Source of the DNA: Acidimicrobiia bacterium
GTDB lineage: Bacteria; Actinomycetota; Acidimicrobiia; Spongiisociales; UBA11373
Reading direction: 5' to 3'
NCBI GenBank assembly: GCA_040878325.1
Contig: JBBDMM010000001.1
Span: forward strand, 124,001 to 177,700
DNA length: 53,700 nucleotides
This document shows, piece after piece, positions 14,119 through 53,621 of the stretch. Position 1 is the stretch's first letter; each line of letters opens with the position of its first letter. The position numbers were made by a program, and so were the translations under genes. The notes beneath the pieces were generated by a model. It was not told where the DNA came from. It saw only the letters and a list, made by a program, of their open reading frames with translations, and made no database searches.

Positions 14119-14136
14119 GCGATTGGCGATTGGCGA
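14119..14136. repeat. Short heptamer array (GCGATTG)x2.6
   Basis: Between convergent lexA and dapF; same unit as 48604-48627. Confidence 0.6.
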
Positions 14137-14150
14137 GCCTGCTCGCAGGG

Positions 14151-14951
14151 TCAGCTGCCCCCCTCCCCCCTTCGGGGTACTCCCCCCGGAAGCCGGGGGA
14201 AGACGATCGTTCCTGAGAAGACCTCGCGGGCGGGGCCTTCGATCCAGGCTTCGCCTTCGATGATCTCCACCAGCAGTGGGCCACCGGGGAGCATCACGGT
14301 CACCTTGGGATCGGTCAGGCCGCGGTGGATGGCGGCTGCCACCGTGGCGGCGGCACCGGTGCCGCAGGCGAGGGTCTCGCCCACTCCCCGCTCCCACACC
14401 CGGAGGTCGATTCGGTCCGGAGCGACGACCGTGGCGAACTCCACATTGGTGCGGTCGGGGAACGCTGGATCGCCTTCGACCAGGGGGCCGGCGGCGCCGA
14501 CGGGCACCGCCCCGGTGTCGGAGACGAAGGCGACGGCATGGGGATTCCCGACGTCGACCCGCTCCAGCCGATAGCCGATCAGTTCCACCGGGTCACCGGA
14601 GACCGCAACCGGGCCGAGTTGGGCGCGGACGGTCCCGTCTCGCACCACGGTGCTCCTCGGCCCGACCGGGGTGTCGACCGTCACTTCGGGGCCGGGGACC
14701 ATCCCGTGCGTCACCGCATATAGGGCGACACACCGCAAGCCGTTCCCGCACATTTCGGCGGCCGATCCATCGGCGTTCCAGTAGCCCATGGACACGGTCC
14801 CGGCGTCCACCGGAGTCACCACCAGGACCCCATCGGCTCCGATCCCGCGCCGGCGGTCGCACCAATCAGCCACCTGCGCCGGAGATGGGTCGAATGGGCC
14901 ACCGAAGACGACGAAGTCGTTGCCCAGGCCCTCCATCTTCACGAAGTCCAT
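14151..14951 (-). CDS. dapF: Diaminopimelate epimerase
   Basis: KMEGLGNDF, EMCGNGLRC, GNPH, ERGVGETLACGTGA. Confidence 0.97.
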   Translation of the reverse strand: MDFVKMEGLGNDFVVFGGPFDPSPAQVADWCDRRRGIGADGVLVVTPVDAGTVSMGYWNADGSAAEMCGNGLRCVALYAVTHGMVPGPEVTVDTPVGPRSTVVRDGTVRAQLGPVAVSGDPVELIGYRLERVDVGNPHAVAFVSDTGAVPVGAAGPLVEGDPAFPDRTNVEFATVVAPDRIDLRVWERGVGETLACGTGAAATVAAAIHRGLTDPKVTVMLPGGPLLVEIIEGEAWIEGPAREVFSGTIVFPRLPGGVPRRGEGGS

Positions 14952-15856
14952 CCGGCCCCCTCGAGGCTCGCCACCGCCGTCTCGGCAAGCAAAGCGGGGT
15001 CATCTTGCCACCCCAGCCAGTCGATCCTCGGGTCGCGCCGGTGATAGGTGCGCTGGCGCCGCGCCAGCGCGGTAGTGGCGTCGATCGCCCGCCTGCGAGC
15101 GGTGGCCAGGTCCCACTCCCCCTCGACCACCCGCATCATCTCGCGGTACCCGACCGCGGTGGCGGCGGTGGGGCCTAACCGGCCGCGCAAGCCATCGACT
15201 TCGTCGAGCAGACCGCCCTCGATCATCCGGTCGAGCCGCCGCTCCACCCGGGCGGGAAGCTGCTCCCCCGGATCGACACCCACCACGGCCACCGGGATCT
15301 CGGGCCGATACTCCCGGACGGCATCGGCAGTTGGCGCAGTCGCCCGGGCCGTAGGCGTCAACCCGGTGAGCCGGTGGATCTCCAGGGCGCGGATCACCCG
15401 GCGCGGGTTGCTCAGATCGACCCACACCCCTGCTTCCGAATCAGCCGCGAGCAGTTCCGCGGTTGCCTCCTCGGCCGACATGCCCTCGATGACCTCCCGC
15501 AGGCTCTCGTCCGTCGGAGGAAACTCCAGCGGATCCACCAGCGACCTGAAGTGCAGCCCGCTGCCACCCACGATCAGGACCCGAGCTCCCCGACCCTCGA
15601 TCTCGGCCATCGCCAGACGTCCGCGCACCTGAAACTCGGCCACGGAGAAGGCCACCTCCGGATCGACGATGTCGATCATGTGATGCGGCACACGGGCGAC
15701 CTCGCCGGCCGCCGGCTTGGCGGTCCCGATGTCCATGCCCCGATAGACCTGCATGCTGTCTACCGAGACGATCTCCGCGCCGAGCCGCTCGGCGACGAGC
15801 AGGGCGACATCGCTCTTACCGGCCGCAGTGGGGCCGAGAATCGCCCCGACCTTCAG
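14939..15856 (-). CDS. miaA: tRNA dimethylallyltransferase; probable CTG start
   Basis: GPTAAGKS P-loop and VDSMQVYRGMDIGTAKP. The P-loop lies upstream of the ORF-track ATG (15754), so the start must be earlier. Confidence 0.92.
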   Translation of the reverse strand: MKVGAILGPTAAGKSDVALLVAERLGAEIVSVDSMQVYRGMDIGTAKPAAGEVARVPHHMIDIVDPEVAFSVAEFQVRGRLAMAEIEGRGARVLIVGGSGLHFRSLVDPLEFPPTDESLREVIEGMSAEEATAELLAADSEAGVWVDLSNPRRVIRALEIHRLTGLTPTARATAPTADAVREYRPEIPVAVVGVDPGEQLPARVERRLDRMIEGGLLDEVDGLRGRLGPTAATAVGYREMMRVVEGEWDLATARRRAIDATTALARRQRTYHRRDPRIDWLGWQDDPALLAETAVASLEGAGWTS

Positions 15857-17241
15857 GTCGCCACCCGCCCGACCAGGTGGCTGGGGGCGGCACGCTCGAC
15901 GACGGCGTCAAGAAAGGACCCTGGGGCGTGCTCACCGGGAACGTGCAAGACCTTGTTGGTCCTCGTCCTCGCCGTCACCACTCCAGGATCCTTCCTCGAA
16001 GGACCCTCGACGAGACCCTCGACCGTGCTGCCCACCAACGCCTGGTTCTTCTCCAGCGACACCTGGCGCTGCAGATCGGCCAACCGGGTGAACCGCGCGG
16101 ACGCCACTGCGGGGTCGACCTGCCCGTCCATGTCGGCTGCAGGGGTCCCCGGTCGGGGCGAGTAGATGAACATGTAGGCACCGTCGAAGCGGGCTTCGGC
16201 CACCACATCGAGTGTCCGCTGGAAGTCATCCTCCGTCTCGCCGGGGAACCCCACGATGACGTCGGTGGAGGTCGCCAGGCCGGGAATCGTCGCCTCGGCG
16301 GCCCGCAGCTTCTCGATGAAACGATCCGGGGTGTAGCCGCGTTGCATCGCCCGCAGGATCCGGGCGCTGCCGCTCTGAAGGGGCAGATGGAGTTGCTCGC
16401 ACACCGCAGGTGTCTCGGCCATCGCCTCGAGCACATCCTGCTTGATGTCCTTGGGGTGCGGGCTGGTGAACCGGATCCGCCGGATCCCTTCGATCTCGCC
16501 CACTCGCCGCAGCAGGTCGGCGAAGATCGGACGGCGGCGGCCATCGATCGCCAGGTCCCGCCCGTAGGAGTTGACGTTCTGGCCGAGAAGGGTCACCTCG
16601 ACCACCCCGTCGGCAACCAGATCGCGCACCTCGCGGACGACGTCGCCCGGACGCCGCGAGATCTCCTTGCCCCGGACGATCGGCACGATGCAGAAGGTGC
16701 ACCCGTTGTTGCACCCGATCGTGATCGTCACCCAGGCCGAATGCGGAACCTCCCGGTGGGCCGGCAGGGTGGACGGCACATCGTCGATCGAGGCGGTCTC
16801 GTCCCAGATCTCGGTGACCGGGCCCCACTCCTCGGCGTGATCGAGGAGGGTGATCACCCGATGGAGGTTGTGCGTACCGAAGACCACATCCACCCACGGC
16901 GCCTTTGCCTGAACGACCTCTCGATCCTTCTGGGCGAGGCACCCACCCACCAGGATCCGCATGCCGGGGCGTTCGTCCTTCACCGCCTTGAGTTGACCGA
17001 GGTTCCCATAGAGGCGGTTGTCGGCGTTCTCGCGGATACAGCAGGTGTTGATCATCACCACGTCGGCATCGGCGAGCCCGGCGGCGGGAACCATCCCATC
17101 GGCTTCGAACAGCCCTCCAATGCGTTCGGAATCGTGCTCGTTCATTTGACAGCCGAAGGTCCGCACCAGGTACCGGCGCCCGGTGCGCGTCGGAACGCGA
17201 CGCTCGCGCACCACGGGGATACCGAGTTCGACGGTGGTCAT
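15853..17241 (-). CDS. miaB: tRNA-2-methylthio-N6-dimethylallyladenosine synthase
   Basis: TFGCQMNEHDSE, CNNGCTFC radical-SAM motif, C-terminal TRAM domain. Confidence 0.96.
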   Translation of the reverse strand: MTTVELGIPVVRERRVPTRTGRRYLVRTFGCQMNEHDSERIGGLFEADGMVPAAGLADADVVMINTCCIRENADNRLYGNLGQLKAVKDERPGMRILVGGCLAQKDREVVQAKAPWVDVVFGTHNLHRVITLLDHAEEWGPVTEIWDETASIDDVPSTLPAHREVPHSAWVTITIGCNNGCTFCIVPIVRGKEISRRPGDVVREVRDLVADGVVEVTLLGQNVNSYGRDLAIDGRRRPIFADLLRRVGEIEGIRRIRFTSPHPKDIKQDVLEAMAETPAVCEQLHLPLQSGSARILRAMQRGYTPDRFIEKLRAAEATIPGLATSTDVIVGFPGETEDDFQRTLDVVAEARFDGAYMFIYSPRPGTPAADMDGQVDPAVASARFTRLADLQRQVSLEKNQALVGSTVEGLVEGPSRKDPGVVTARTRTNKVLHVPGEHAPGSFLDAVVERAAPSHLVGRVAT

Positions 17242-18770: not shown

Positions 18771-18965
18771 GATTCTCCTTCCGGCCGACCCCGCCGGACA
18801 AACTGCGCGTCGAGCCACCCGGCTCGACGCGCACCCTCAGACCCAGTCATCCACAGACTCGGTCGATCACACCTCCCGGCAGGGCCGTAACTTCAGAACG
18901 TTTTGTTTCAATTGCGTGTGCGCGTTGGGAGGTAATCGTACCGCGCCCCGGCCGATCTGCCAGGA

Positions 18966-20066
18966 TCAGTCTTCCGGAATGTCGTCGATGGAGATTTTCT
19001 CCACCGAACCCTTGGTTTTCGCCGGGGCGACGGTCTCGTCGTCGGATTCCACATCATCCTCGTCGAACGACTCCATCACCTTGCCGGCGAGACCGACCGC
19101 CTCGAGCACTCGGGCCTGGAGTTGCATGGCGACCTCCGGGTTCTCCTTGAGGAAGCGCTTGGCGTTCTCCCGACCCTGGCCCAGCTGATCGTCCTCGTAC
19201 GTGTACCAGGCGCCGCTCTTACGGACCACGTCCTGCTCCACCGCCACGTCGAGGAGGCTTCCCTCCCGGGAGATGCCGGTGCCGAACATGATGTCGAACT
19301 CGGCCTTGCGGAAGGGCGAAGCCACCTTGTTCTTGACCACCTTGGCGACCACCCGGTTGCCGATCGATTCCTGGCCGTCCTTGATCGTCTGGATACGACG
19401 GACCTCGATCCGCACCGACGAATAGAACTTCAGGGCGCGACCACCGGGGGTTGTTTCGGGAGAACCAAATAGGACGCCGATCTTCTCGCGGATCTGGTTG
19501 ATGAAGATGGCGGTGGTGTGTGAGCGGTTGATCGAGCCGGCCAACTTGCGCAGCGCCTGCGACATCAGGCGGGCCTGGAGGCCCATGTGGGTGTCGCCCA
19601 TCTCGCCTTCGATCTCGGCCCGGGGGGTGAGGGCGGCCACCGAGTCGATGATGATCACGTCGAGCGAGCCCGAACGGATCAGCATGTCGGTGATCTCCAG
19701 GGCCTGCTCCCCGGTGTCTGGCTGCGAGATCAGCAACTCGTCCACATCGACCCCAAGGGCCGAGGCGTAGCTCGGATCGAGAGCGTGCTCGGCATCGATG
19801 AAGGCGGCAATACCCCCGTTGCGCTGGGCTTCGGCGGCGATGTGGAGCGCGAGGGTCGTCTTTCCGCTGCTCTCAGGTCCGTATATCTCGACGATCCGAC
19901 CGCGGGGAACGCCTCCGATACCCAATGCGAGGTCGAGCGACAGGGCACCCGTCGGGATCGCCTCGATCTTCACGATGTTGTCGGTGCCGAGCCGCATGAT
20001 CGCGCCCTTGCCGAACTGGCGCTCGATCTGCGAGAGGGCCATCTCGAGGGACTTGTCTCGTTCCAC
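18966..20066 (-). CDS. recA: Recombinase A
   Basis: [38 protein letters not shown]; no intein. Confidence 0.99.
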
Positions 20067-20096
20067 CTTCGGACTCCTTTAGTGATGATGCGGCTG

Positions 20097-20118
20097 ACGC
20101 TACGCCGGGCCTGTGACA
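20097..20118 (-). promoter_or_regulatory. RecA-NDp (PafBC-type) proximal recA promoter
   Basis: TGTCAC-N10-TAGCGT. Confidence 0.65.
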
Positions 20119-20166: not shown

Positions 20167-20195
20167 ACAGTAGACGAACACATGTTCGATTACAA
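20167..20195 (-). promoter_or_regulatory. Distal recA promoter with a LexA box in the spacer
   Basis: TTGTAA-N17-TACTGT enclosing CGAACACATGTTCG (20175-20188). Confidence 0.85.
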
Positions 20196-20203: not shown

Positions 20204-20355
20204 GCAATTCGCGATACGCAATACCGCAATACGCGACGCGTCGTATCGCGTTCGAAGGGCCAGCCAACTCCGTCGGATTGGCGCGTCCTGAACAAGGACA
20301 GGTTCGTTGGGAAAATCACTCCCGGCGCGTAGCGCATTGCGCATCGCGCATTGCG
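20204..20355. repeat. Inverted heptamer arrays
   Basis: GCAATTC GCGATAC GCAATAC C GCAATAC (from 20204) and GCGTAGC GCATTGC GCATCGC GCATTGC (20327-20355). Confidence 0.8.
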
Positions 20356-23965: not shown

Positions 23966-23993
23966 GAGGGCAAACCGTAGCGACGGTGGAAGG

Positions 23994-24042
23994 AGCCAAG
24001 GGCCAAGAGTCAAGAATCAAGAGGTAGGCGGTAAGAGGCAAG
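23994..24042. repeat. Degenerate heptamer array, 7 units
   Basis: AGCCAAG GGCCAAG AGTCAAG AATCAAG AGGTAGG CGGTAAG AGGCAAG. Confidence 0.7.
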
Positions 24043-24110
24043 CGGACGCACTGAGGCGCAGCCGCTCTGGGGTGTTGCCCGGCGGGGCGGCCTCGGCGAT
24101 CATTCCACCA

Positions 24111-25182: not shown

Positions 25183-25186
25183 CGAT

Positions 25187-28445: not shown

Positions 28446-28533
28446 GCGCAATGCGCAATGCGCAATGCGCAATGCGACAGACGCGTCGACGGCGTGTGCT
28501 CGCGTTCCGTCGTATTGCGAATTGCGAATTGCG
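28446..28533. repeat. Inverted heptamer arrays
   Basis: (GCGCAAT)x4 at 28446-28477 facing CGTATTG CGAATTG CGAATTG CG at 28511-28533. Confidence 0.9.
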
Positions 28534-28554
28534 GGCCGAGCGGAGCGAGGCCTC

Positions 28555-30119: not shown

Positions 30120-30268
30120 GCAATTCGCAATACGCGATACGCGATACGACGACCACGCGGCTTCAACGCGTGCTGTCGTATCGCGAATTGCGCCGAGCGG
30201 CGACCGCTCCGCCGGCGGAGATGCCTGCAGAGGCACGCTGACGCGAGCCGCGGTTCTTGCGCATTGCG
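30120..30268. repeat. Inverted heptamer arrays
   Basis: GCAATTC GCAATAC GCGATAC GCGATAC GAC (30120-30150) facing GTC GTATCGC GAATTGC (30175-30191); TCTTGC GCATTGCG at 30255-30268. Confidence 0.85.
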
Positions 30269-32549: not shown

Positions 32550-32602
32550 GTGCGAGCCAGGGTAGGGCAGGGGTGGGCTAGAACAAACGATTGTCCGACA
32601 AA

Positions 32603-32698
32603 GCCCCGGCTCCAGCCCCGGCCCCAGCCAGACCGGTACCAGTAAGGGCCGACCCCGATGCCTCTGGCTGGAGCAGGAGCAGTGGCTGGAGCTGGAGG
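32603..32698. repeat. Inverted hexamer arrays
   Basis: GCCCCG GCTCCA GCCCCG GCCCCA GCCAGA facing TCTGGC TGGAGC AGGAGC AGTGGC TGGAGC TGGAGG. Confidence 0.7.
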
Positions 32699-32712
32699 TC
32701 TAGCCCGGAGGG

Positions 32713-34344
32713 CTAAACCTCCAGGACTACTGGTATCACCACCGGCTTCTTCTGGGTTTCGTTGCTGATTACCCGGTTGACGGCGCCGCGGGCATGGCGT
32801 TCGACTTGTTCTGCATCGACCGGCACTTCGATCGAGCCGAGAACGTCGACCACGGCCTTGGCCGCCTTGGCGAACACGGCCTCGGGATCGTCCATGAAGC
32901 CGTGGCTGTCGAGGTCGGGGCCCTGGATGATCTCTCCGGTGGACACGTCGACGGCGAGCGTGACCACCACCACCCCATCCTCGGACAGGTGCCTGCGGTC
33001 ACGGATGATCCCGTGCACCGAGCCGGCCACCTCGAGGCCGTCGACATACACATGCGAGGCAGAGATCGCCCCCTTCTCCATCCGGGCCTTGCCCTTGTCG
33101 AGGACGATGGCGTCGCCGTCGGCGCAAAGGAACACCTCCGGAACCTTCATCTCCTCGGCTAGCTCGGCGTGGGCCTTCAAGTGGCGATATTCGCCGTGGA
33201 TCGGTACCAGCGCTTGGGGCCTGACGACGTTGATGAAGGTCTTCAACTCGTCCCGGGCCGCATGTCCCGACACGTGGACCTCGGAGTTGTTGCCGTGGAA
33301 CACCCGGGCGCCACGGCGCAACAGGCCGTTGATCACCCGCGACACTTTCATCTCGTTGCCGGGGATCGGCCGGGCCGAGATCAGGACGGTGTCGCCCTCG
33401 GTGATCTTCACCCAACGGTGCTCCCCCGCCGCCATCAATGAGAGCGCCGAGAACGGCTCGCCCTGGCTGCCGGTCGACACGAGCGCGGTCTTCTCCGGGG
33501 GAAGGCGCAACAGCTCCTCGATCGGGAGCACCGCGTCAGGAGGGACGTCGATCAACCCGAGCGACTCGGCGATGGGGACGTTGCGCACCATCGACCGTCC
33601 CATCAGTCCGACGAACCGACCCGCGTCGACCGCGGCGTTCACTATCTGTTGCACCCGATGAATGTGGCTGGCGAAGCACGCCGCGATCAACCGGCCCTTG
33701 GTCTCCACCACGATCTCATAGAGCGGCTGGGCGAGGCTCGACTCGGAGGGGACGAACCCGGGCACCTCGGCGTTGGTGCTGTCGGATAGCAGCAACCTCA
33801 CTCCCTGGCGGCCGAGGTCGGCGAATTGGGGCAGGTCGGTGGGCACGCTGTCGATGGGGGTCGGATCCAGCTTGAAGTCGCCGCTGTGCACCACGATCCC
33901 CTCGGGCGTGTCGAAGGCGATCCCGGCACCCTGGGGAATGGAGTGCGACACCGGGATCAGCATGAAGCGGAAGGGCTTGTGGTCGATCCACTCGCCGGTG
34001 GCGACGGCACGCATGTCGGCATCGATACCGGCTTCGTCGATGCGCGACCGGGCGAATGCCACCGCCAGCGGGGTGCCATAGACGGGCACGTTCACCTCGC
34101 GCAGGAGGTAGAAGAGGGCCCCGACATGGTCCTCGTGTCCGTGGGTGAGGACCACGCACTCGAGGTCGTCAGCCCGTGCCACGATCGGAGAGAGGTCGGG
34201 TAGCACCAGATCCACCCCGAGCATGTGCTCGTCCGGGAACATGAGCCCGCAGTCGATCAGCGCCAGTTTCCCGTCGATCTCGAGAACCGCGCAGTTGCGA
34301 CCAATGTTGCCCAGCCCACCGAGAAACGAGACGCGGACGCTCAT
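32713..34344 (-). CDS. rnj: Ribonuclease J
   Basis: LGGLGNIGRN, THGHEDHVG, HSGDFK, TGSQGE, HVSGH, PIHGE. Confidence 0.96.
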   Translation of the reverse strand: MSVRVSFLGGLGNIGRNCAVLEIDGKLALIDCGLMFPDEHMLGVDLVLPDLSPIVARADDLECVVLTHGHEDHVGALFYLLREVNVPVYGTPLAVAFARSRIDEAGIDADMRAVATGEWIDHKPFRFMLIPVSHSIPQGAGIAFDTPEGIVVHSGDFKLDPTPIDSVPTDLPQFADLGRQGVRLLLSDSTNAEVPGFVPSESSLAQPLYEIVVETKGRLIAACFASHIHRVQQIVNAAVDAGRFVGLMGRSMVRNVPIAESLGLIDVPPDAVLPIEELLRLPPEKTALVSTGSQGEPFSALSLMAAGEHRWVKITEGDTVLISARPIPGNEMKVSRVINGLLRRGARVFHGNNSEVHVSGHAARDELKTFINVVRPQALVPIHGEYRHLKAHAELAEEMKVPEVFLCADGDAIVLDKGKARMEKGAISASHVYVDGLEVAGSVHGIIRDRRHLSEDGVVVVTLAVDVSTGEIIQGPDLDSHGFMDDPEAVFAKAAKAVVDVLGSIEVPVDAEQVERHARGAVNRVISNETQKKPVVIPVVLEV

Positions 34345-35231
34345 GTGTCGCGGGCGCCCGCCAGCGCCTCCTTGATGCGGTCCACCGTGTCGGATGCCGC
34401 CGCCACCAGGGGCAGGCGGGGCCGACCCACCGGACGCCACAACGCGTCCATTGCCGCCTTCACCGGGATCGGGTTGGGCTCGACGAACAGCGAGGTGAAC
34501 AGCGGCGTCAGAGCGAGGTGCAGGCGACGGGCCTCGGCGAAGTCGCCCTCGGCTGCTGCAGCCACCATCGCGGCGATTTGGTCGCCGGCGAGGTGCGCTG
34601 CCACCGACACGATCCCCACCGCCCCCACCGCCATCATCGGCAAGGTGAGGATGTCGTCCCCGGAGTAGATCGCGAAGTCGTCGGGGCAGGCACGCCGGGT
34701 GCTGGTAGTGAAGGCCAAGTCGCCCACCGCATCCTTCACGGCAACGATCCGCTCGTGCGCCGCCAGGCGGGCCAGCGTGTCGACTTCGATCAAGCGGGCG
34801 GTACGGGACGGGATGTTGTAGAGCAGGACGGGCACTGTCGAGGCGTCGGCGATCGCGGTGAAGTGCTCGAAGAGGCCCTGCTGGGGCGGGCGGGAGTAGT
34901 AGGGCGTCACCGCCATGACTCCCGAACAGCCCAACTCGCAGGCCAATCTCGTCAGGTGGACCGACTCGGCGGTGTCGTACGAGCCGGTGCCGGCCAGCAC
35001 CGCAGCACGGTTACCCACCGCTTCGACGACCGTGCGGAACAGCGAGAGCTTCTCGTCCTCCGAAAGGGTGGGCGACTCGCCGGTGGTGCCCGCCACCACG
35101 ACGCCGTCGGACCCGGTCTCCACCAGATGGACCGCCAGCTCCCAAACCGCCCCGTAGTCGACCGCCCCCTCAGAGTCGAAGGGCGTGATCATTGCAGTCA
35201 GCACGCGGCCGAATGGTGGGGTCAGGGACAT
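34341..35231 (-). CDS. dapA: 4-hydroxy-tetrahydrodipicolinate synthase
   Basis: GTTGESPTL, TPYYS, LYNIP, VKDA, SGDD, EPNPIPVK. Confidence 0.96.
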   Translation of the reverse strand: MSLTPPFGRVLTAMITPFDSEGAVDYGAVWELAVHLVETGSDGVVVAGTTGESPTLSEDEKLSLFRTVVEAVGNRAAVLAGTGSYDTAESVHLTRLACELGCSGVMAVTPYYSRPPQQGLFEHFTAIADASTVPVLLYNIPSRTARLIEVDTLARLAAHERIVAVKDAVGDLAFTTSTRRACPDDFAIYSGDDILTLPMMAVGAVGIVSVAAHLAGDQIAAMVAAAAEGDFAEARRLHLALTPLFTSLFVEPNPIPVKAAMDALWRPVGRPRLPLVAAASDTVDRIKEALAGARDT

Positions 35232-35261
35232 CAAGATCTCCTGTGTGTCTGGTAGGACGGT

Positions 35262-35367
35262 AGTCGCGAGTCTCCAGTCGCCAGTCCCCAGTCCCCAGCA
35301 AGAACGAAGTGGGCGCGCCGATTCGGATCGGGTCTGCCTGGTGACTGGCGACTGGTGACTGGAGACT
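35262..35367. repeat. Inverted heptamer arrays (AGTCNCC family)
   Basis: AGTCGCG AGTCTCC AGTCGCC AGTCCCC AGTCCCC AGCAAGA facing CTGGTGA CTGGCGA CTGGTGA CTGGAGA CT. Confidence 0.92.
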
Positions 35368-35413
35368 CACCTATCCTCGGAATCCCAACGGCGCGCGATC
35401 CGTTGTAACGCAC

Positions 35414-36247
35414 ATGGACCATGTCAAGGACATCGATCAGCAGGACTTTGGGCGCGAGGTGCTGCAGCGCAGCGAGGAAGTGCCGGTCGTCGTCGACTTC
35501 TGGGCCGAGTGGTGCGGGCCGTGCAAGACGCTCGGGCCGACGCTCGAGAAGGTGGCCGAGGCCCATAGGGGTGCCTTCGAGCTGGTGAAGATCGATGTCG
35601 ACGCCAACCAGGCGCTCGCCGCTCAGTTCGGCATCAAGTCGATTCCCACCGTCATGGCCTTCAAGAACGGCAAGCCCGTCGGCCAGTTCATGGGGGCAAT
35701 CCCTGAGACCCAGGTGCGCCAATGGGTCGACACGCTCCTCCCCACCGAAGAGGACCGCATGGTCGACCGGGCCAGAGACCTGGTACTCGACGGCGACGAG
35801 ACCGCGGCCGAGACCATCCTCCGCGACGTGGTCGCGCGGGTCCCCGGCCATGAGGAGGGCGCCACCGCCCTGGCCTCGATGCTGATCGCCCGCGGCGACA
35901 CCGAAGAAGCCCTGATCGTTCTCGGGCGGCTCCCCCGAACCGCCGAGGTGGAACGCCTCGAGGCCGCCGCCCGGGTGACCGCAGCGCAAGAGATCGACCT
36001 CACCGCCATCGAACGTCGCCTCGCCGCCGACCCCGACGACCAGTCCGCTCTGCTCGAACTGGGTCAGGCCCTGGCGGCCCGCGGCGAGTACGAACCGGCT
36101 CTCGACCGCCTCCTCGAAGTCGTCAAGGCAGGCGGCGACCTACGCGATCCCGCCCGCCAGGCGATGGTGGACGTCTTCGGAATCCTGGGGGCGGATCATC
36201 CGGTAGCGGTCTCGTATCGGAGAGCGCTGGCGAACGCGCTGTTCTGA
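35414..36247 (+). CDS. Thioredoxin with C-terminal TPR domain (YbbN/CnoX-like)
   Basis: VDFWAEWCGPCK, SIPTV, helical C-terminus ending YRRALANALF. Confidence 0.92.
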   Translation: MDHVKDIDQQDFGREVLQRSEEVPVVVDFWAEWCGPCKTLGPTLEKVAEAHRGAFELVKIDVDANQALAAQFGIKSIPTVMAFKNGKPVGQFMGAIPETQVRQWVDTLLPTEEDRMVDRARDLVLDGDETAAETILRDVVARVPGHEEGATALASMLIARGDTEEALIVLGRLPRTAEVERLEAAARVTAAQEIDLTAIERRLAADPDDQSALLELGQALAARGEYEPALDRLLEVVKAGGDLRDPARQAMVDVFGILGADHPVAVSYRRALANALF

Positions 36248-36249
36248 AG

Positions 36250-36378
36250 AGTCTCCAGTCGCCAGTCTCCAGTCCCCAGTCAAACAAGACATCGCCATCG
36301 CTCAAAGACGGGAGGAGATCGCGTTCGCGTGGTCGAGCGCTTCTTGCTGGAGACTGGAGACTGGAGACTGGGGACTGG
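36250..36378. repeat. Inverted heptamer arrays (AGTCNCC family)
   Basis: AGTCTCC AGTCGCC AGTCTCC AGTCCCC AGTC facing TCTTG(CTGGAGA)x3 CTGGGGA CTGG. Confidence 0.92.
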
Positions 36379-36380
36379 CC

Positions 36381-37142
36381 TCAAATCCCCAACAACCCCT
36401 CCAAACCCACCGTCACTGGATCGGGTAGTCCGGCCACCGATCGGATGGCGAGCAGGACTCCTGGCATGAATGATGCCCGGTCGGTGGTGTCGTGGCGGAT
36501 GGTCAGGGTTTCGCCGGGGGAGCCGAACAGCACCTCTTGATGGGCAAGCATCCCCGGCAGGCGAATCGAGTGGATGCGGGGGCCGGCCGCCGCACCGCGC
36601 GCACCGGGAAGCAGCTCCTCCGATTCGACCGTGCGCTCCTGACGGCCCCCGGCTTCGGTGATCCGCGCTGCGGTGGTGATGGCCGTCCCCGAGGGGGCAT
36701 CCGCTTTCTTGTCGTGATGCAGTTCGACGATCTCCGAAGCGGAAAAGTGCGGGGCGGCGAGTTCGGCGAACCGCATCATCAGGATCGCCCCGATGGAGAA
36801 GTTGGGAACCACCAGGCAATTGGGCGGCCCGCCCCCCCACTGTTCCCTGAGGGCTGCGATCCGGGCCGCGTCGAATCCGGAGGTGCCCACCACCGCGTGG
36901 ACTCCGAGATCGCGCCACGCTGCCAGGTTGGGCATCACCACGTCAGGCATCGTGAACTCGACGACCACCTCGGCCTCGCCGACGACGACGGGATCCGATG
37001 CGACGACGACCCCGGAGATGGTCTCGCCGGCGTGGGAAGGATCGAACGCCGCCACCAGTTCGAGGTCGGGCTCCCCAGCAACCGTCTCGATGACGAGGCG
37101 GCCCATCCGGCCGCCCGCCCCGGATACGGCGACGCGTGTCAT
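36381..37142 (-). CDS. dapB: 4-hydroxy-tetrahydrodipicolinate reductase
   Basis: GAGGRMG, VGTSG, PNFSIGA, ELHHDKKADAPSGTA. Confidence 0.97.
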   Translation of the reverse strand: MTRVAVSGAGGRMGRLVIETVAGEPDLELVAAFDPSHAGETISGVVVASDPVVVGEAEVVVEFTMPDVVMPNLAAWRDLGVHAVVGTSGFDAARIAALREQWGGGPPNCLVVPNFSIGAILMMRFAELAAPHFSASEIVELHHDKKADAPSGTAITTAARITEAGGRQERTVESEELLPGARGAAAGPRIHSIRLPGMLAHQEVLFGSPGETLTIRHDTTDRASFMPGVLLAIRSVAGLPDPVTVGLEGLLGI

Positions 37143-38389
37143 GCCACGTACGTTTCCAGGTCGGCGGCGTCGAAGGGGCCGACGGCGCCGATGACGTACG
37201 GGCCTGAATAGACCTCTTTGGCGACCGCGTGGACATCCTCGAGGCTCACCGCGTCGATGCTGGCCACGGTCTCGTCGAGGGAGAGGTGGGGAACACCGGT
37301 CAGCTCATGCCGGCCCAACCGCACCATCCGGCTGTTGGTGTCCTCCATCGACAGGGCAAGGGATCCCTTCATGTTGCCTTTGGCGCGGTCCAGTTCCTCG
37401 GGCGTGATCCCCCACTCGATCAGTTGGCCGAGTTCCGCCCGGATCAGTTCGAGTACCTGCTGGGTCTGGGTCGGAGTAGTGCCCACGTAGACGCCAAAGG
37501 CACCGGAGTCGGCGTACGGCATCCGGAAGGCGTACACCGCGTAGGCCAGACCGCGCTCTTCCCGGATCTCCCGGAACAGGCGGCTCGACATGCCGCCGCC
37601 GAGGACATGGTTGAGGATCCCGAAGGCGAATCGGCGGTCGTCGCCGCGGGTGAGCGCCTCGCCCCCGATGACCAGGTGGGCCTGCTCGGTGTCGCGGCGC
37701 ACCACTTCAACGTTCGACCTCATCGTCGGAGGCTCCAGGTCGCGTCCGGGCACGGTGCCGTCCCAGGTGCCGAACCGATCGGCGGCCATCTTGACCACCT
37801 CGTCGTGGTCGATGTGCCCGGCGGCGGCGATCACCACCGTGGAAGGGTGATAGCGCCGTGACCAATACTCCGAGATGACTTCTCGACCCATTGCGTTGAT
37901 CGACTCTCGGGTGCCCAGCACCGGCTTCGCCAGAACGTGCTGGTCCCACAGCGCCTGCGCGAACTGATCGTGGGCGACGTCGGACGGGTCGTCCTCGTTC
38001 ATGTTGATCTCTTCGAGGACCACGTTCGACTCGGAGGCGATGTCGTCCGCACGGAAGGACGGGCGCTGAAGCATCTCGGAGAGCAGACCGAGACCCATGG
38101 AGACATCCTCGTCGCGCAACTGCGCCCAATAACAGGTGTACTCCTTCGAGGTGAAGGCATTGGAGCGAGCGCCGACCGAATCAAAAGCCTCGGCGATCTC
38201 GCGGGCACCCAGTAGTTCGGTCCCCTTGAAGAGCAAGTGCTCGAGAAAGTGCGAGCAACCGGCCTCAGCACCGATCTCGTCACGGCTCCCCGTATCCACC
38301 CAACACCCCACAGCCACCGACCGCACCGAAGGCATGGTCTCGGTGATCACACGCAAACCATTGGGAAGAACGGTGAGGAGGTGGTCCAT
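37139..38389 (-). CDS. M16 family zinc peptidase
   Basis: HFLEHLLFKGT (HxxEH), NAFTSKE, GGGMSSRLF.EIRE.RGLAY. Confidence 0.95.
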   Translation of the reverse strand: MDHLLTVLPNGLRVITETMPSVRSVAVGCWVDTGSRDEIGAEAGCSHFLEHLLFKGTELLGAREIAEAFDSVGARSNAFTSKEYTCYWAQLRDEDVSMGLGLLSEMLQRPSFRADDIASESNVVLEEINMNEDDPSDVAHDQFAQALWDQHVLAKPVLGTRESINAMGREVISEYWSRRYHPSTVVIAAAGHIDHDEVVKMAADRFGTWDGTVPGRDLEPPTMRSNVEVVRRDTEQAHLVIGGEALTRGDDRRFAFGILNHVLGGGMSSRLFREIREERGLAYAVYAFRMPYADSGAFGVYVGTTPTQTQQVLELIRAELGQLIEWGITPEELDRAKGNMKGSLALSMEDTNSRMVRLGRHELTGVPHLSLDETVASIDAVSLEDVHAVAKEVYSGPYVIGAVGPFDAADLETYVA

Positions 38390-38416
38390 GGCTGGACGAT
38401 GGTACCCATCGTCCAG

Positions 38417-38433
38417 AGTCTCCAGTCTCCAGT
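38417..38433. repeat. Left heptamer arm of the four-helix-bundle locus
   Basis: AGTCTCC AGTCTCC AGT. Confidence 0.8.
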
Positions 38434-38441
38434 TCCGCTCA

Positions 38442-38810
38442 TCAGCTGCTGGCTGATGTCCTCAAGAGAGTCCGCTGGAGGCTTGTCAGCATGGCTCGCA
38501 GCTCCGACAATTCCTGGCTCATAGCCTCGAAATCCGAATCTGCCAGATATCCAAGATCTCGACCCAGGAGGAGCTGGTATTCGGCTTCGTTGCATGACGC
38601 CGAGGCGTACCCGATGAACCGGGAATAGTCGGCACGCGTCATCCGCCCCGAACCTTCGGCGATATTCATCGGAATCGACGACACCGACCGGCGCGTCTGC
38701 GACACGAGTCCGAACCGCTCGTCGGGTGGATACGCCCCGGTGACCAAGTATGAGCGAAGTGTCAGGGCGTGCGACCGCTCCCAGACTTTGAGCTGCCGGT
38801 AGTCACGCAT
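38442..38810 (-). CDS. Four-helix-bundle protein (23S rRNA-IVP / TIGR02436-like)
   Basis: MRDYRQLKVW..YPPDERFGLVSQTRRSVSSIPMNIAEGSGR..S..E..YQL....DLGY. Confidence 0.93.
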   Translation of the reverse strand: MRDYRQLKVWERSHALTLRSYLVTGAYPPDERFGLVSQTRRSVSSIPMNIAEGSGRMTRADYSRFIGYASASCNEAEYQLLLGRDLGYLADSDFEAMSQELSELRAMLTSLQRTLLRTSASS

Positions 38811-38852
38811 GCCTGTTTCATGTCACAACCCGCGGGCCAGGTCAAGGGGTCT

Positions 38853-38884
38853 GACTGGAGACTGGAGACTGGTGACTGGAGACT
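38853..38884. repeat. Right heptamer arm of the four-helix-bundle locus
   Basis: GACTGGA GACTGGA GACTGGT GACTGGA GACT, reverse complement of the left-arm unit. Confidence 0.9.
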
Positions 38885-38890
38885 TCCTGC

Positions 38891-40394
<1,504 letters not shown>

Positions 40395-43417: not shown

Positions 43418-43482
43418 CGGATCTGGGTGAGCAGAGACCCGGCACCCGAGGGTGCCGGGTCTCCACCCGGTCAATCAGCCGA

Positions 43483-48081: not shown

Positions 48082-48187
48082 TCCTCAGTCGCCAGTCTCC
48101 AGTCTCCAGTCTCCAGTCTGAAGCAGGTGAACGCGCTTCACAGGGCTGGCGGGTTGCGCATCGCGCATCGCGCATCGCGGATGGCGG
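48080..48187. repeat. Two heptamer arrays
   Basis: AGTCCTC AGTCGCC (AGTCTCC)x3 AGTCT at 48080-48119; (GCATCGC)x3 GGATGGC at about 48158-48187. Confidence 0.9.
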
Positions 48188-48562: not shown

Positions 48563-48603
48563 GGAATGAGTCTGGCAAGGTCGGCCGCCGTCGGCGACCT
48601 CCC

Positions 48604-48741
48604 GCGATTGGCGATTGGCGATTGGCAGAACGCGTTCGAAGCGTCGGACCCGTCGAGCTGAGTCTTGCGGAAGGCGGAAGGCGGAAGGCGGAAGGCCCTT
48701 CTTCCTGGAGACTGGAGACTGGCGACTGGCGACTGCCGACT
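48604..48741. repeat. Three stacked heptamer arrays
   Basis: (GCGATTG)x3; TCTT(GCGGAAG)x4GCC; CTGGAGA CTGGAGA CTGGCGA CTGGCGA CTGCCGA CT. Confidence 0.93.
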
Positions 48742-48753
48742 ACCTTCCCCCCC

Positions 48754-49818: not shown

Positions 49819-49830
49819 TCTTCAGGGTTC

Positions 49831-50562
49831 ATGCGGGAAATCCTGGCCGACCTCGTCGCCGAGCAACAGGGCCTCGATCAGTCGCTGCAACGCGCTCCAG
49901 ATCGAGACTGGAAGAAGCGCGTCGAGGGGAACACAGTCCAAGAGGCGATCGCCATCCTCGCGTGGGAGGAACAGCACGCCGCCCGCGCCCTCGCCGGGGA
50001 CCGCACGGTGCGCAAGGAACTCGCTTCCTACGACGACCTCGACGCCTTCGTGAAGGCGGGGGCGGCCAAGGCCAAGGGCAAGCGGCCGCAGGAAGTCATC
50101 GAATGGTGGCGGTTCGCCCGGGCCGACGTCGTCGACGCCCTCAGCAGGATGAAGCCCACCGACCGGGTTACCTGGGTCGAGGGCAAGGTGAGTGCGCGGT
50201 CGTTTGCGACGCTGCGACTCGCCGAGACCTGGGCCCGGGGCCTGGCGATCCTCGAGGGCCTCGACAAGGAGATCGTCGATACCCCCCGCTTGCGCCACAT
50301 CGCCTGGCTCGGGTGGGCGACCCTCCCCCATGCCTTCAAGGCTGCCGGCGAGCACTATGAGCCAGTCCGGGTCGAGGTCACCGGCCCGGCGTACGCCCGG
50401 TGGGTGTTCGGACCCGAAGGCGGCGATCAGGTGATTCGGGGCCAGGCGGGCGAATGGTGCCGCCTGGTGGTCGGCCGTCTCGACCCCGCCAAGTCGGAAT
50501 CGCTCGCCGCGACCGGTGAGGTGGCCGAGATGGCGCTCGAGGTGGCCGGCATCTTCGTATGA
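49831..50562 (+). CDS. DinB/MDMPI-family protein (maleylpyruvate isomerase-like N-terminal domain)
   Basis: ILADL.AEQ..LD, SARSFATLRLAETWA.G, RLRHIAWLG, W.FGP. Confidence 0.75.
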   Translation: MREILADLVAEQQGLDQSLQRAPDRDWKKRVEGNTVQEAIAILAWEEQHAARALAGDRTVRKELASYDDLDAFVKAGAAKAKGKRPQEVIEWWRFARADVVDALSRMKPTDRVTWVEGKVSARSFATLRLAETWARGLAILEGLDKEIVDTPRLRHIAWLGWATLPHAFKAAGEHYEPVRVEVTGPAYARWVFGPEGGDQVIRGQAGEWCRLVVGRLDPAKSESLAATGEVAEMALEVAGIFV

Positions 50563-51344
50563 GGGCGCCTTCGCTCGGGCACTGGCGGCTCATCGGCATG
50601 GTGCACGTCGGCCCGCTGCCCGGAGCGCCCCGCTTCGACGGCGATCTCGACTCGACGCTCGCCGGTGCACTGCTCGACGCCCGCCGCCTCGCCGACGCCG
50701 GATTCGACGCTCTGATGATGGAGAACTTCGGCGATGCCCCCTTCTTCGCCGACGATGTGCCCAAGGTCACGGTGGCCGCAATGACGCGGGTAGCCACCGC
50801 GATCCGCGAGGCGGTGGACCTGCCCCTCGGGATCAACGTGTTGCGAAACGACGCCCTCGCCGCAGTCGCCGTCGCGGCGGCGTCCGGAGCGTCGTTCATC
50901 AGAGTGAACGTCCTTGCCGGCACGATGAGCACCGACCAGGGGCCCATCACCGGGCGCCCCGCCGAAGTGGCCCGGCTGCGAGCAGCAGTCCATCCGACCC
51001 TTCAGGTGCTCGCCGACGTGTTCGTGAAACATGCGGTCCCCCCGCCCGGCCTCACCCTGGCCCAGGCCGCCCGCGACCTGTGGGAGCGGGGCGGTGCCGA
51101 CGGGATCGTGGCCAGCGGCAGCGGAACCGGCCATCCGGTCGACTTCGACCGGCTGCACGAGATCCGCAAGGTGGTTCCTGATGCACCGTTGTTCGTCGGA
51201 TCGGGAGTCGACGCCGCCACGGTCGGAGAACTCCTGGAGGTCTGCTCGGGCGTCATCGTCGGCACATCGGTCAAGGAAGCCGGCCTGAGCACTGCCCCGG
51301 TCGATCCGGAGCGCGCGGCGGCACTGGTGAAGGCGGCGGGATGA
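50559..51344 (+). CDS. BtpA/SgcQ family TIM-barrel protein
   Basis: IGMVHVGPLPGAP, ENFGDAPF, GINVLRND, ADVFVKH, SGSGTG, VGSGV. Confidence 0.92.
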   Translation: MRAPSLGHWRLIGMVHVGPLPGAPRFDGDLDSTLAGALLDARRLADAGFDALMMENFGDAPFFADDVPKVTVAAMTRVATAIREAVDLPLGINVLRNDALAAVAVAAASGASFIRVNVLAGTMSTDQGPITGRPAEVARLRAAVHPTLQVLADVFVKHAVPPPGLTLAQAARDLWERGGADGIVASGSGTGHPVDFDRLHEIRKVVPDAPLFVGSGVDAATVGELLEVCSGVIVGTSVKEAGLSTAPVDPERAAALVKAAG

Positions 51345-51781
51345 AGGCTCATCGCCGCTTCGAGTCGGGCACCACCCATCTCTTCAGGCTCGAGGCAGGC
51401 GACGACATCGTTCACGAGATCACCCGATTCGTGACCGAGCACGGGATCTCGGTGGCGTGGATCAGCTACCTGGGGGCGGTGCGCAAGGCGTCGCTGCGCT
51501 ACTACGACCAGAACCGCCTCGAATACCAGGACTTCACCATCGACCATCATCTCGAGGTCCTGTCGGGGGTCGGGAACGTCTCGCTTCTCGACGGCAAGCC
51601 CTTCGTTCACACCCACGCGGTCTTCTCGGACGAGGACGGCAAGGCATTCGGCGGCCACCTCAACACCGGCTGCGAGGTCTGGTCGCTCGAGGTGCGGGTG
51701 GAGGAACTCATCGGTGACCCCCCGATGCGCCAATTCGACGAGACCACCGGTCTCGGCCTCTGGCGCCACGACGAGGCCTGA
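51341..51781 (+). CDS. PPC/DUF296 domain protein
   Basis: FRL..GDD, LGAV, GNVS, HTH metal motif, GGHL. Confidence 0.9.
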   Translation: MKAHRRFESGTTHLFRLEAGDDIVHEITRFVTEHGISVAWISYLGAVRKASLRYYDQNRLEYQDFTIDHHLEVLSGVGNVSLLDGKPFVHTHAVFSDEDGKAFGGHLNTGCEVWSLEVRVEELIGDPPMRQFDETTGLGLWRHDEA

Positions 51782-51787
51782 GCCGGC

Positions 51788-52429
51788 CTAGGCCTCGGGC
51801 GGGGCGTCGAGACCCCGCGGTGTGACCTCGAAGCCGCTCTTCAACAGCAGGCTGAGCATCGCCGGCGCCGGGTCGCGGAATTGCACCGGGCGGAACGCCA
51901 GGTCGGTACCCGAGAAGAACCGCATCAGCGTCTGCACCATGTGAGCGTGGGTCATCGTATGAAGGTCACAGTGCGGCGCCCGTCCGAACGCCACCAGCCG
52001 CACCCTGACCTCGCCGCCACCCCGAGCGGGCGCCACGCACAGCTTCGCGGACGACAGGTCGTCGACGATCGACGTCAGTTCGACGGTGAACAACCACTCG
52101 ATGCGGCGCAGCATCTGGTGTAGCACCTTGTGGTCGCGGATCCCCGGGTTGAACTCGGCTTCACTCTGCTTCACCTCGCCGATCACCACATCGATCTGGC
52201 CCGGCTCGAGCCGCAGTTCGGGATCATCGAGGAGAAGCAGCCGGGTGTCGGGCTCGTCGTGCGGATCGCCCGCGTAGATCTTTCCGGGGAAGCGCAACGC
52301 CATGATGTCGATGTCGGTGATCGACTCGAATTCCCCATCAACCCGACGCGCCTGCACCTCGAACTCACTGAGCGTCAGATACCCATTGAGCCGCAAATAG
52401 GTCTCGACCAGATTGACCGCGATGTCCAT
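51788..52429 (-). CDS. Hypothetical protein with PD-(D/E)xK nuclease-like motifs
   Basis: LVETYLRLNGY...E, TDIDIMA, VVIGEVK; start set at ATG 52429 (the extension is repeat-derived). Confidence 0.65.
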   Translation of the reverse strand: MDIAVNLVETYLRLNGYLTLSEFEVQARRVDGEFESITDIDIMALRFPGKIYAGDPHDEPDTRLLLLDDPELRLEPGQIDVVIGEVKQSEAEFNPGIRDHKVLHQMLRRIEWLFTVELTSIVDDLSSAKLCVAPARGGGEVRVRLVAFGRAPHCDLHTMTHAHMVQTLMRFFSGTDLAFRPVQFRDPAPAMLSLLLKSGFEVTPRGLDAPPEA

Positions 52430-52457
52430 GGAGCGATTGTCGGCCGCCAAGGGCAGC

Positions 52458-52583
52458 ATTCGCAATTCGCAATTCGCAATTCGCAATTCGCAATTCGCAA
52501 TTCGCCGGAAGGTCGCGTCCGCTCTTGCTGAAGGCGGAAGGCGGAAGGCGGAAGGCCAGTCTGGAGACTGGAGACTGGAGACT
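52458..52583. repeat. Three stacked heptamer arrays
   Basis: (ATTCGCA)x6.9; TCTTGCTGAAG(GCGGAAG)x3GCC; (CTGGAGA)x3CT. Confidence 0.95.
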
Positions 52584-52644
52584 CCCCTAGCCTCTCCTCA
52601 AGGTCGGCTTCGATTACACCTCTTTCTCTGCGCGGTCTTCGTTC

Positions 52645-53574
52645 GTGGGGGTGCCTCGGCGGGAGATTGGGGAGATCGGCGATGCCGCGGTGGTGATCCT
52701 CGGCGCTCCGCTCGACTGGGGGACCACCAACCGGCCCGGCGCCCGCTTCGGACCGAAGGCGATTCGTGAGGCCGATTACCTCGACCCCGATGGGAAGCGG
52801 CCTCACCTCGACACCGGGATCGATCCGCTCGAAGTGCTCGGCGTGGTCGACATCGGGGATGTGCACGTGCTTACCGGATACATGGAAGAGAGCATCGATC
52901 GGATCCGCGCTGTCGTGTCGACCGTCGCTGGGGCGGGGGCGGTTCCCGTCGTGCTGGGCGGCGATCACACCATCACTTTCCCCGACGCCGGTGGGGTGGC
53001 CGACGTCCACGGCCACGGCGAGATCGCCCTCATCCATTTCGACGCCCACGCCGACACCGGCGAGAGCCACTACGGAAAGCTTCTGGGACACGGAACGCCG
53101 ATGCGTCGGCTGATCGAATCGGGTGCCGTGCCCGGTCACCGCTTCGTCCAGATCGGGCTGCGGGGGTACTGGCCCGATCCGCCGGTGGTCGAGTGGATGC
53201 GGGGCGAGGGGATGCGATCCTTCTTCATGGGCGAGATCGTCGAACGGGGCCTCGGGCCGGTGGTCGACGACGCGGTTGCTCACGCCGCCGACGGCGCCAA
53301 AGGTGTATTCATTTCGGTGGACATCGACGTGGTCGACCCGGGAGCAGCACCCGGCACCGGCACCCCCGAACCAGGAGGGCTCACCGCCCGCGAGTTGCTC
53401 GACACGGTCCGCCGCCTCGGCCGCGACCTCAACGTCCTCGGCGCCGACGTCGTCGAAGTCGCCCCCGCCTACGACACCTCCGACATCACGGCCCTGTTAG
53501 CAAACCGGGTTGTGCTCGAGCTGCTCAACGGGATGGCGCAGCGGGTTTTGGGCCGAGGTGACGCGAGCAGCTAG
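52645..53574 (+). CDS. speB: Agmatinase / ureohydrolase family protein
   Basis: RPGARFGP, GGDH, HFDAHAD, SVDIDVVDP, PGTGTPEPGG, VVEVAP; exact substrate and start uncertain. Confidence 0.88.
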   Translation: MGVPRREIGEIGDAAVVILGAPLDWGTTNRPGARFGPKAIREADYLDPDGKRPHLDTGIDPLEVLGVVDIGDVHVLTGYMEESIDRIRAVVSTVAGAGAVPVVLGGDHTITFPDAGGVADVHGHGEIALIHFDAHADTGESHYGKLLGHGTPMRRLIESGAVPGHRFVQIGLRGYWPDPPVVEWMRGEGMRSFFMGEIVERGLGPVVDDAVAHAADGAKGVFISVDIDVVDPGAAPGTGTPEPGGLTARELLDTVRRLGRDLNVLGADVVEVAPAYDTSDITALLANRVVLELLNGMAQRVLGRGDASS

Positions 53575-53586
53575 CCAAGTTGAGGT

Positions 53587-53621
53587 GGCCTTCCGCCTTC
53601 CGCCTTCCGCCCTCGGCAAGA
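53587..53621. repeat. Heptamer arm inverted relative to 52523-52557
   Basis: GGC(CTTCCGC)x3CCTCGGCAAGA. Confidence 0.9.

Follow-up and report, generated by a model that had tools for sequence, protein, structure and literature searches.

What are the tandem 7-nt arrays that recur between the genes of an Acidimicrobiia bacterium, and why do they so often face each other as inverted arms? The question was raised by a stretch of 53,700 nucleotides (assembly GCA_040878325.1, contig JBBDMM010000001.1, positions 124,001 to 177,700; hereafter the window), for which a preliminary description had reported heptamer arrays in about 14 spacers. The arrays are members of the known heptanucleotide-repeat class, of which the short tandemly repeated repetitive (STRR) sequences of cyanobacteria are an example. 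With moderate confidence, they are read here as the repeat-built arms of hairpin modules that resemble intervening sequences (IVS) and share the architecture of the arms around S23p (PF05635) genes; once transcribed, the stems would likely be cut by RNase III.

The source genome (G000) comprised 2.21 Mb in 18 contigs, with 67% G+C and a completeness of 98.9%; the window corresponds to C1:124001-177700. RecA placed the genome among uncultured Acidimicrobiia (best match 83%). Genes were called with a custom codon-usage model, giving 2044 genes and 87.8% coding sequence, and every figure given below as intergenic depends on this gene map. Tandem Repeats Finder (TRF) returned 2246 rows for G000, 673 of them of period 7, corresponding to 596 non-overlapping period-7 arrays. 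Three third-order Markov shuffles of the intergenic DNA were used as the null for exact arrays, and 1000 shuffles as the null for inverted pairing between neighbouring arrays (gap of 300 nt or less, n=206). Orthologous spacers were compared with those of three genomes of the same genus, G001 (approximately 90% DNA identity), G002 (approximately 77%) and G003.

Exact arrays of at least 3 copies were counted by period throughout G000. There were 36 of period 4, 6 of period 5, 17 of period 6, 193 of period 7, 1 each of periods 8 and 9, and none of periods 10 to 12; all three shuffles contained 0 exact period-7 arrays. Most of the 193 (184) lay mainly outside predicted genes, at a density of 0.68 per kb in intergenic DNA against 0.0046 per kb in genes. 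The TRF arrays were also chiefly intergenic (530/596), with a median of 3.9 copies and a total length of 16.9 kb, or approximately 6% of intergenic DNA. The 33 canonical heptamer units of G000 were joined by 43 one-mismatch links (11.5, maximum 23, for random heptamers), and a single connected network of units took in 162 of the 193 exact arrays. The genome-wide scan by period and by gene content, which had been proposed as a check, therefore gave a specific, spacer-biased enrichment of period 7. Because period 7 is specifically enriched, slippage noise is not the source of the arrays, as the preliminary description had argued, and its near-neighbour series of units proved correct, given the excess of one-mismatch links and the single large component. 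Its further statement that the period is conserved is overstated in view of hexamer arms at 32597-32700 and, in G001, at the site upstream of a thioredoxin gene.

In the window, TRF returned 21 period-7 rows, all within 14119-53611, and every array first reported was recovered, the short second arms (20204 and 30175) among them. Positions 1-14118 contained no period-7 arrays despite spacers of 100-250 bp. The sites were as follows, with the alleles of relatives where these were compared (no strand is assigned unless given).

14119-14136: (GCGATTG)x2.6, a lone right arm between the convergent genes lexA and dapF. In G001 both arms are present at this site (14104), CGCAATT-type on the left and GCGATTG on the right, and with the loop between them they make a full hairpin.
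20204-20355: two arrays upstream of recA, the left one of CAATTCG/CGATACG type (20204-20250), the other (GCGCATT)x3.4 (20332-20355). Copy numbers and units differ in G001; in G002 the only array is a short one from a different family.
23993-24045: a lone, degenerate CAAGANN-family array (GAGCCAA/GAGTCAA/GAATCAA) between divergent genes. The site (23966) is near-identical in G001; in G002 it is empty, with a spacer of 79 bp.
28446-28533: hairpin of (GCGCAAT)x4.4, a 37-nt loop and (ATTGCGA)x2.9. At this site (28332) G001 has a related loop with both arms changed to GCGATAC/GTATCGC, and G002 has GCGATAC and GAATTGC.
30120-30192: hairpin of four left units (CAATTCG, CAATACG and CGATACG twice) and two right units, the loop between them containing an inner hairpin. 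At this site (30079) G001 has six left units instead of four around the same loop, a change of two units.
32597-32700: hairpin with period-6 arms (CCCCAG/CCCCGG ... CTGGAG), returned by TRF as a period-12 row. At this site (32397) the arms of G001 are AGTCNCC heptamers and its loop is unrelated.
35262-35367: hairpin upstream of a thioredoxin-tetratricopeptide repeat (TPR) gene, with AGTCNCC x5, a 39-nt loop and CTGGNGA x4. The arms are hexamers (CCNGCC) in G001 and CCTTCCG in G002; in G003 the site is empty.
36250-36378: hairpin 2 nt 3' of the stop codon of the thioredoxin-TPR gene, with AGTCNCC x4.6, a 65-nt loop and CTGGAGA x4.6. The arms are AGCCNCC in G001, CGTTNCC in G002 and CGCCTCC in G003, where they enclose an intact S23p gene.
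38417-38884, minus strand: S23p cassette, with left arm (AGTCTCC)x2.4 (38417-38433) and right arm (GACTGGA)x4.6 (38853-38884).
48086-48179: in a convergent spacer, left (CAGTCTC)x4.9 and right (GCGCATC)x3.4, non-complementary and of the usual left and right handedness.
48604-48741: in a divergent spacer, three serial arrays of right-arm type, (GCGATTG)x3.3, (GCGGAAG)x4.3 and (CTGGMGA)x5.3.
52458-52583: in a divergent spacer, three serial arrays, (ATTCGCA)x6.9, (GAAGGCG)x3.9 and (CTGGAGA)x3.3.
53588-53611: a single (GCCTTCC)x3.4, 14 nt 3' of the stop codon of an arginase-family gene.

Pairing was assessed over the 206 neighbour pairs of G000. Complementary inverted pairs numbered 63 (13.8 +/- 3.6 expected, maximum 27), direct pairs were depleted (6/206, 13.9 expected), and the remaining 137 combined different, non-complementary units. 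Against shuffled controls, inverted pairing was thus enriched approximately 4.5-fold. The arrays had been described as mostly in inverted pairs, which overstates their genome-wide state: approximately 126 of the 596 belonged to detected complementary pairs, and 181 of the 341 array-bearing spacers held a single array. Folding of 61 pairs with loops of up to 120 nt gave a median of -49 kcal/mol against -29 kcal/mol for shuffled sequence, with z below -2 in all. Interruptions were present in 50 of 60 stems, and since the spacing of unpaired bases peaked at 7, the variable position of the unit is often the one mismatched.

Each unit family kept to one hand (AGTCNCC 14:0, CAAGANN 15:1, AATGCGC 11:0), and no family with at least 2 pairs in G000 was of mixed handedness. 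Independent slippage would not yield fixed handedness of this kind. A C/A-rich left array was followed by a G/T-rich right array in 97 neighbour pairs, and the opposite order was seen in 9. Hairpins of array-free spacers were unbiased in polarity (66 vs 70), so the polarity of the arms is not one that hairpins show in general. A universal amino/keto rule for arm strands was dropped; because the arms of S23p cassettes in relatives may have either sign, handedness is claimed only within each family.

The loops were mostly single-copy (34 of 37 loops of at least 25 nt, searched against G000). A polar motif was present at the base of the loop, with A[AG]GA on the 5' side in 11 of 41 hairpins and TC[CT]T on the 3' side in 16; the reversed arrangements were seen in 1 and 0 hairpins, respectively. 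Separately, a 19-nt word, GGGCCGAGCGGAGCGAGGC, follows the right arm at 28535-28554; it occurs once in the window and as three tandem copies in the orthologous spacer of G001. The word ggccgagc also lies 3' of right arms at other loci.

Successive arrays with a gene between them were complementary and inverted in 18 of 205 cases (13.3 +/- 3.6 expected), and nearly all 18 consisted of a right arm followed by a left arm, i.e. two separate hairpins flanking the gene. Of the suggestion that arms face each other around a loop or a whole gene, the loop is upheld (63/206) and the whole gene is not, except for S23p. The associated idea of a gene-cassette boundary system likewise fails as a general rule and fits the S23p gene.

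The S23p gene of the window (38442-38810, minus strand) was identified by Pfam (PF05635, E 1.3e-33) and by similarity to PDB 2GSC (E 1.1e-19). Both PF05635 genes of G000 (2/2) were bracketed by heptamer arms, and inverted period-7 flanks were found at 23 of the 26 full-length PF05635 genes in relatives (16 genomes of the order). At the site 3' of the thioredoxin-TPR gene, occupied by gene-less hairpins in G000, G001 and G002, an S23p cassette complete with arms, inner stem and open reading frame (ORF) was present in G003. In G001 the arms of the window's cassette enclosed a different insert of 3.6 kb, with a 1092-aa ORF (L119 8955-12230) that had no Pfam match; only the first approximately 64 nt of the S23p gene were left there, beside the right arm. 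Fragmentary or frameshifted S23p copies were present in G003 and G007. Two cassette pairs, L112/L168 and L184/L172, lay at non-homologous loci, their similarity confined to the cassette and their flanks unrelated; three further related pairs lay at orthologous loci. Where S23p proteins were supported sisters, the arm family was common to both in 4 of 5 cases. Metagenome contigs (X2 record 7 and X3 record 14) matched the window up to 38416, the base before the left arm, and then diverged from it. Positions 38458-38765 were uncovered by contigs of four metagenome runs, which is not evidence of absence. A search for RNA runs matching 34300-38900 of the window returned none.

TTGAC was present 30 nt before the start codon of the window's S23p gene, and at exactly this distance in 8 of the 26 S23p genes (L112, L162, L164, L171, L172, L175, L177 and L184). 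Its position suggests the -35 box of a promoter belonging to the gene itself, from which a leaderless mRNA would be transcribed.

The nearest described counterpart is the S23p-type IVS. According to the available part of Warrier et al. 2016 (PMC4990558), the IVS of Coxiella burnetii has GACAGAT heptamers in its stem, in numbers that differ among strains, with RNase III cleaving at the first of them; Leptospira and Salmonella are cited there as further hosts of such IVSs. The likeness, as far as that text describes it, lies in a PF05635 gene set within a long stem of terminal inverted repeats, which in Coxiella contains tandem heptamers. Terminal inverted repeats and a PF05635 ORF were both present at 38417-38884. 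The great majority of the hairpins had no ORF, so that gene-less versions far outnumber gene-bearing ones, and the S23p cassettes lay between protein-coding genes, unlike an IVS of 23S rRNA. No IVS and no heptamer arrays were found in the 23S rRNA gene of G000, as assembled to model position 2572, where it is cut by the contig end; its extra length was a group I intron (G000:C1 approximately 1436-1722, L114; Rfam RF00028, 55 bits). Processing by RNase III is inferred from the Coxiella precedent, as given in the available text of PMC4990558, and from the RNase III gene of G000, which also encodes Rho. A literature search (supplements lay outside it) found nothing linking intergenic heptamer arrays generally to S23p cassettes; only the Coxiella paper, in the part available, pairs S23p with heptamers.

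S23p shares a four-helix-bundle fold family with Avd, the accessory protein of diversity-generating retroelements, which the available part of PMC10053308 gives as homologous with PF05635/2GSC. Unlike such retroelements, G000-G003 had no detectable PF00078 reverse transcriptase (0/4 genomes), and the domain was found in 2 of 31 relatives searched. Because PF00078 was not found in G000-G003, a retro-mechanism of this type is not supported, and an origin of the arrays by reverse transcriptase or a telomerase-like activity was rejected for now.

Array density was sampled across relatives, and the genera of a single family spanned 0 to 14 per 20 kb. Median density was 4.1 arrays per 20 kb in 15 genomes with PF05635 and 0 (maximum 2.35) in 15 genomes without it. 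A prediction made in advance held: 19 further genomes lacking PF05635, drawn from ten other families of the class, were all (19/19) array-poor (9 arrays in 735 kb, 0.24 per 20 kb). Every array-rich genome had PF05635, and all 34 sampled PF05635-free genomes were array-poor. PF05635 was not found in other orders of the class (0/52 genomes).

Filled, half-filled and empty sites were found at orthologous loci of G000-G003, the comparison that had been proposed to reveal gain and loss, together with copy-number changes, arm swaps and exchanges of period 7 for period 6. Between G000 and G001, period-7 and period-6 modules were swapped between two sites, 32597-32700 and the site upstream of the thioredoxin gene. 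At the latter, contigs of metagenome runs X2 and X3 carried 136 other letters in place of 35222-35375, and the single comparison of filled (G000 and G002) with empty (G003) alleles gave no clear target-site duplication. Whole modules were replaced at 3-4 of approximately 10 compared sites. Two array-free spacers remained approximately 88-90% identical between relatives, conserved like genes, and an ordinary short hairpin at 43418-43482 was also conserved. The view of the arrays as a propagated element family, put forward in the preliminary description, fits the period-7 excess, the pairing, the fixed handedness and these filled, half-filled and empty sites.

Placement relative to genes was scored for spacers of at least 40 bp. 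Of the convergent spacers 40% carried arrays, compared with 25% of the tandem and 28% of the divergent ones; densities were 3.03, 2.1 and 1.53 per kb, respectively. Arrays were a median of 10 nt away from gene 3' ends, compared with 59 nt for 5' ends. Of the 160 array blocks in tandem spacers, 124 occupied the half nearer the stop codon, and the median fractional position was 0.14. Single arrays had no bias of orientation relative to genes.

On the reading of the arrays as arms of IVS-like modules, the S23p cassette likely represents a semi-selfish element in its complete and self-expressed form, and hairpins without the gene are likely derived from it or dependent on it. The arrays, mutually related and fast-evolving, are likely propagated or maintained along with the S23p gene. 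The arms were probably remodelled by replication slippage within an arm combined with copying between arms, by template switching in the quasi-palindrome. Modules are probably tolerated for sitting outside reading frames. In RNA the stem would either be cut out or do no more than terminate or divide the transcript.

Several findings weigh against this reading. G000 has only 2 S23p genes for approximately 600 arrays, and several of its abundant arm families have no S23p gene there. S23p remnants were not detected in the gene-less loops of G000 (2 matches among 5 candidates). The unique loops (34/37) argue against copy-and-paste spread of whole modules; S23p might have inserted into pre-existing hairpins, and the arms common to related cassettes could reflect an abundant family instead of co-transfer. 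Four genomes with PF05635 were array-poor (G008, G011, G014 and G024), three of them with arm-less copies, and the counts relating PF05635 to arrays ignore phylogeny, both traits sitting in one part of the order. Arrays were present in 84 of 301 divergent spacers, which contain no gene 3' end. Hairpins in 34 tandem spacers were no stabler in the sense than in the antisense strand (13 vs 21, Wilcoxon p 0.76); because of this equality and the unbiased orientation of single arrays, nothing points to strand-specific selection on RNA, and no sign of it was seen as an asymmetry of G-U against C-A.

A wider extension of the reading is offered tentatively, as possible at best. The S23p cassettes would be the autonomous form of a widespread element, whose S23p pentamer recognises, protects or helps to copy the heptamer arms. 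The heptamer excess here, and by extension that of STRR-type repeats in cyanobacteria, Xanthomonas and others, would then be the footprint of this element and not a property of DNA polymerase.

That extension depends on how the arrays relate to the heptanucleotide repeats already described. Cyanobacterial STRR sequences were reportedly described by Mazel et al. in 1990. The unit AGTCCCC is a rotation of CCCCAGT, the unit reported for STRR1. The tandem 7-nt excess, the intergenic placement and the presence of several units per genome, which mark the heptanucleotide class, were all found in G000. The link to STRR sequences made at the outset is apt as a resemblance of class, the host being one of the Acidimicrobiia and not a cyanobacterium. 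Heptanucleotide long simple-sequence repeats (LSSRs) of prokaryotes (Mrazek, Guo and Shah 2007) were consulted as reported in the available parts of PMC4679880 and PMC4692102. As described there, the arrays resemble LSSR/STRR sequences in being over-represented 7-nt units, intergenic, several to a genome and with no known function; they differ in occurring in a 67% G+C member of the Acidimicrobiia, in being mostly short (median 3.9 copies), handed and often hairpin-paired, and in their association with PF05635.

Two better-described sets were compared, again within the text available. The GGGAATC repeats of Xanthomonas and the GGGGA(C/T)T repeats of Nostoc (Rehm et al. 2015, PMC4692102) are also intergenic, with some inverted pairs between convergent genes, and they too keep the same gene neighbours in related species while varying in length and sequence. 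They are G-rich and were studied as quadruplex formers, whereas the units of G000 are mostly not G-runs and many families coexist. The TAACTGA repeats of marine Beggiatoaceae, cyanobacteria and Bacteroidetes (MacGregor 2015, PMC4679880) are likewise abundant intergenic heptamers of 2-6 copies with a patchy phylogeny. In that case a single unit dominates, placed in forward orientation immediately 5' of start codons, and inverted pairing is rare (1 of 170 sets); in G000 there are many units, orientation is unbiased, placement is stop-proximal and inverted pairs are frequent.

The explanation given for such repeats by Mrazek and co-workers is neutral replication slippage with a built-in 7-nt step. 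Applied here, with inverted pairs arising by copying between arms, it would require neither an element nor a role for S23p, and the heptamer excess of many phyla is ascribed, in the available text of PMC4679880 and PMC4692102, to polymerase contact length. Copy number changed by whole units between close relatives (4 vs 6), the arrays occupy the unconstrained stop-proximal part of the spacer with no bias of orientation or of sense over antisense, and the loops are unique, all as slippage would have it. A general property of polymerase should, however, not be patchy, and density ranged from 0 to 14 per 20 kb within one family and fell to 0.24 in the 19 genomes from other families. Per-family handedness and the one-step network of units point instead to common descent or a templated process, and the association with PF05635 is left unexplained. 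Neutral slippage is regarded as unlikely.

Selected devices at transcript ends, either bidirectional factor-independent terminators or 3'-end stabilisers in which repeats offer an easy way to lengthen a stem, would account for the density in convergent spacers, the short distance to stop codons (median 10 nt, 124/160 blocks stop-proximal) and the strength of the predicted stems, and equal stability on both strands fits bidirectional use. We consider them rather unlikely. Array-bearing spacers include 28% of the divergent class; many arrays are single or have non-complementary neighbours (137/206 pairs); empty or lone-arm sites occur in close relatives with the same flanking genes; sister genera lack such arrays; and ordinary short hairpins, such as that at 43418-43482, are present and conserved. 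No U-tract was obvious after the hairpins in the spacer sequences read, in which U-tracts were not scored.

Very unlikely is an origin as non-autonomous transposons like miniature inverted-repeat transposable elements (MITEs), the heptamer arrays being terminal inverted repeats and the transposase encoded elsewhere. MITEs and repetitive extragenic palindromes or bacterial interspersed mosaic elements (REP/BIME) are similarly small, palindromic, intergenic, often just 3' of genes and variably present between relatives, and the filled and empty orthologous sites, the whole-module replacements at 3-4 of approximately 10 sites, the related S23p cassettes at non-homologous loci and the handedness fixed within each family would all be expected of them. 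The modules differ from both in having no conserved interior (34 of 37 loops without a second genomic copy), in arms that are tandem arrays whose length and mix of units vary at every locus, and in having no known associated transposase; no candidate transposase turned up beside the arrays, and none was sought.

Binding-site arrays or contingency loci tuning their neighbours, by phase variation or by periodic binding of cold-shock protein or Rho, are most improbable: unit number does vary between relatives, start codons follow some arrays (35338, 48705, 52561) at a distance of 12-60 nt and one cold-shock protein per heptamer is discussed for TAACTGA repeats in the available part of PMC4679880, but the unit sequence changes between sites and, within one site, between close relatives, orientation relative to genes is unbiased, and most arrays lie 3' of the stop codons of housekeeping genes and not, as in phase-variable contingency loci, within a reading frame or promoter.

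With sister genera that have or lack both features and sites that are filled, half-filled or empty, this genome and its relatives constitute a natural experiment, in which one orthologous site alternates between a gene-less hairpin and an S23p cassette. If the association with S23p is causal, two old puzzles merge into one: heptamer repeats have been known as over-represented in many bacterial genomes for decades, to our knowledge with no explanation, and for S23p (the '23S rRNA intervening-sequence protein') a structure has been solved but we know of no function. If it is not causal, the hairpins are fast-evolving structured 'filler' DNA, which annotators should not mistake for regulatory sites.

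Other features were noted in the course of the analysis. GAAC-N4-GTTC palindromes lie upstream of lexA (three copies, within 13330-13450) and recA (one copy, 20176-20192) and resemble actinobacterial SOS boxes. RecA of the window (18966-20066, 366 aa) lacks an in-frame insertion of approximately 430 aa that is present in RecA of G001 (L118 7949-10339, 796 aa) right after the P-loop (GPESGGK|C ... SHN|T); the insertion looks like an intein. The run of 30 G at 53671-53700, where the window and contig C1 (177700 bases) both end, is probably a sequencing or assembly artefact. At 10652-10847, between two tRNA genes on the minus strand (10584-10654 and 10886-10958), a 73-bp unit is repeated 2.7 times with 99% matches, and each unit contains two GC-rich hairpins.

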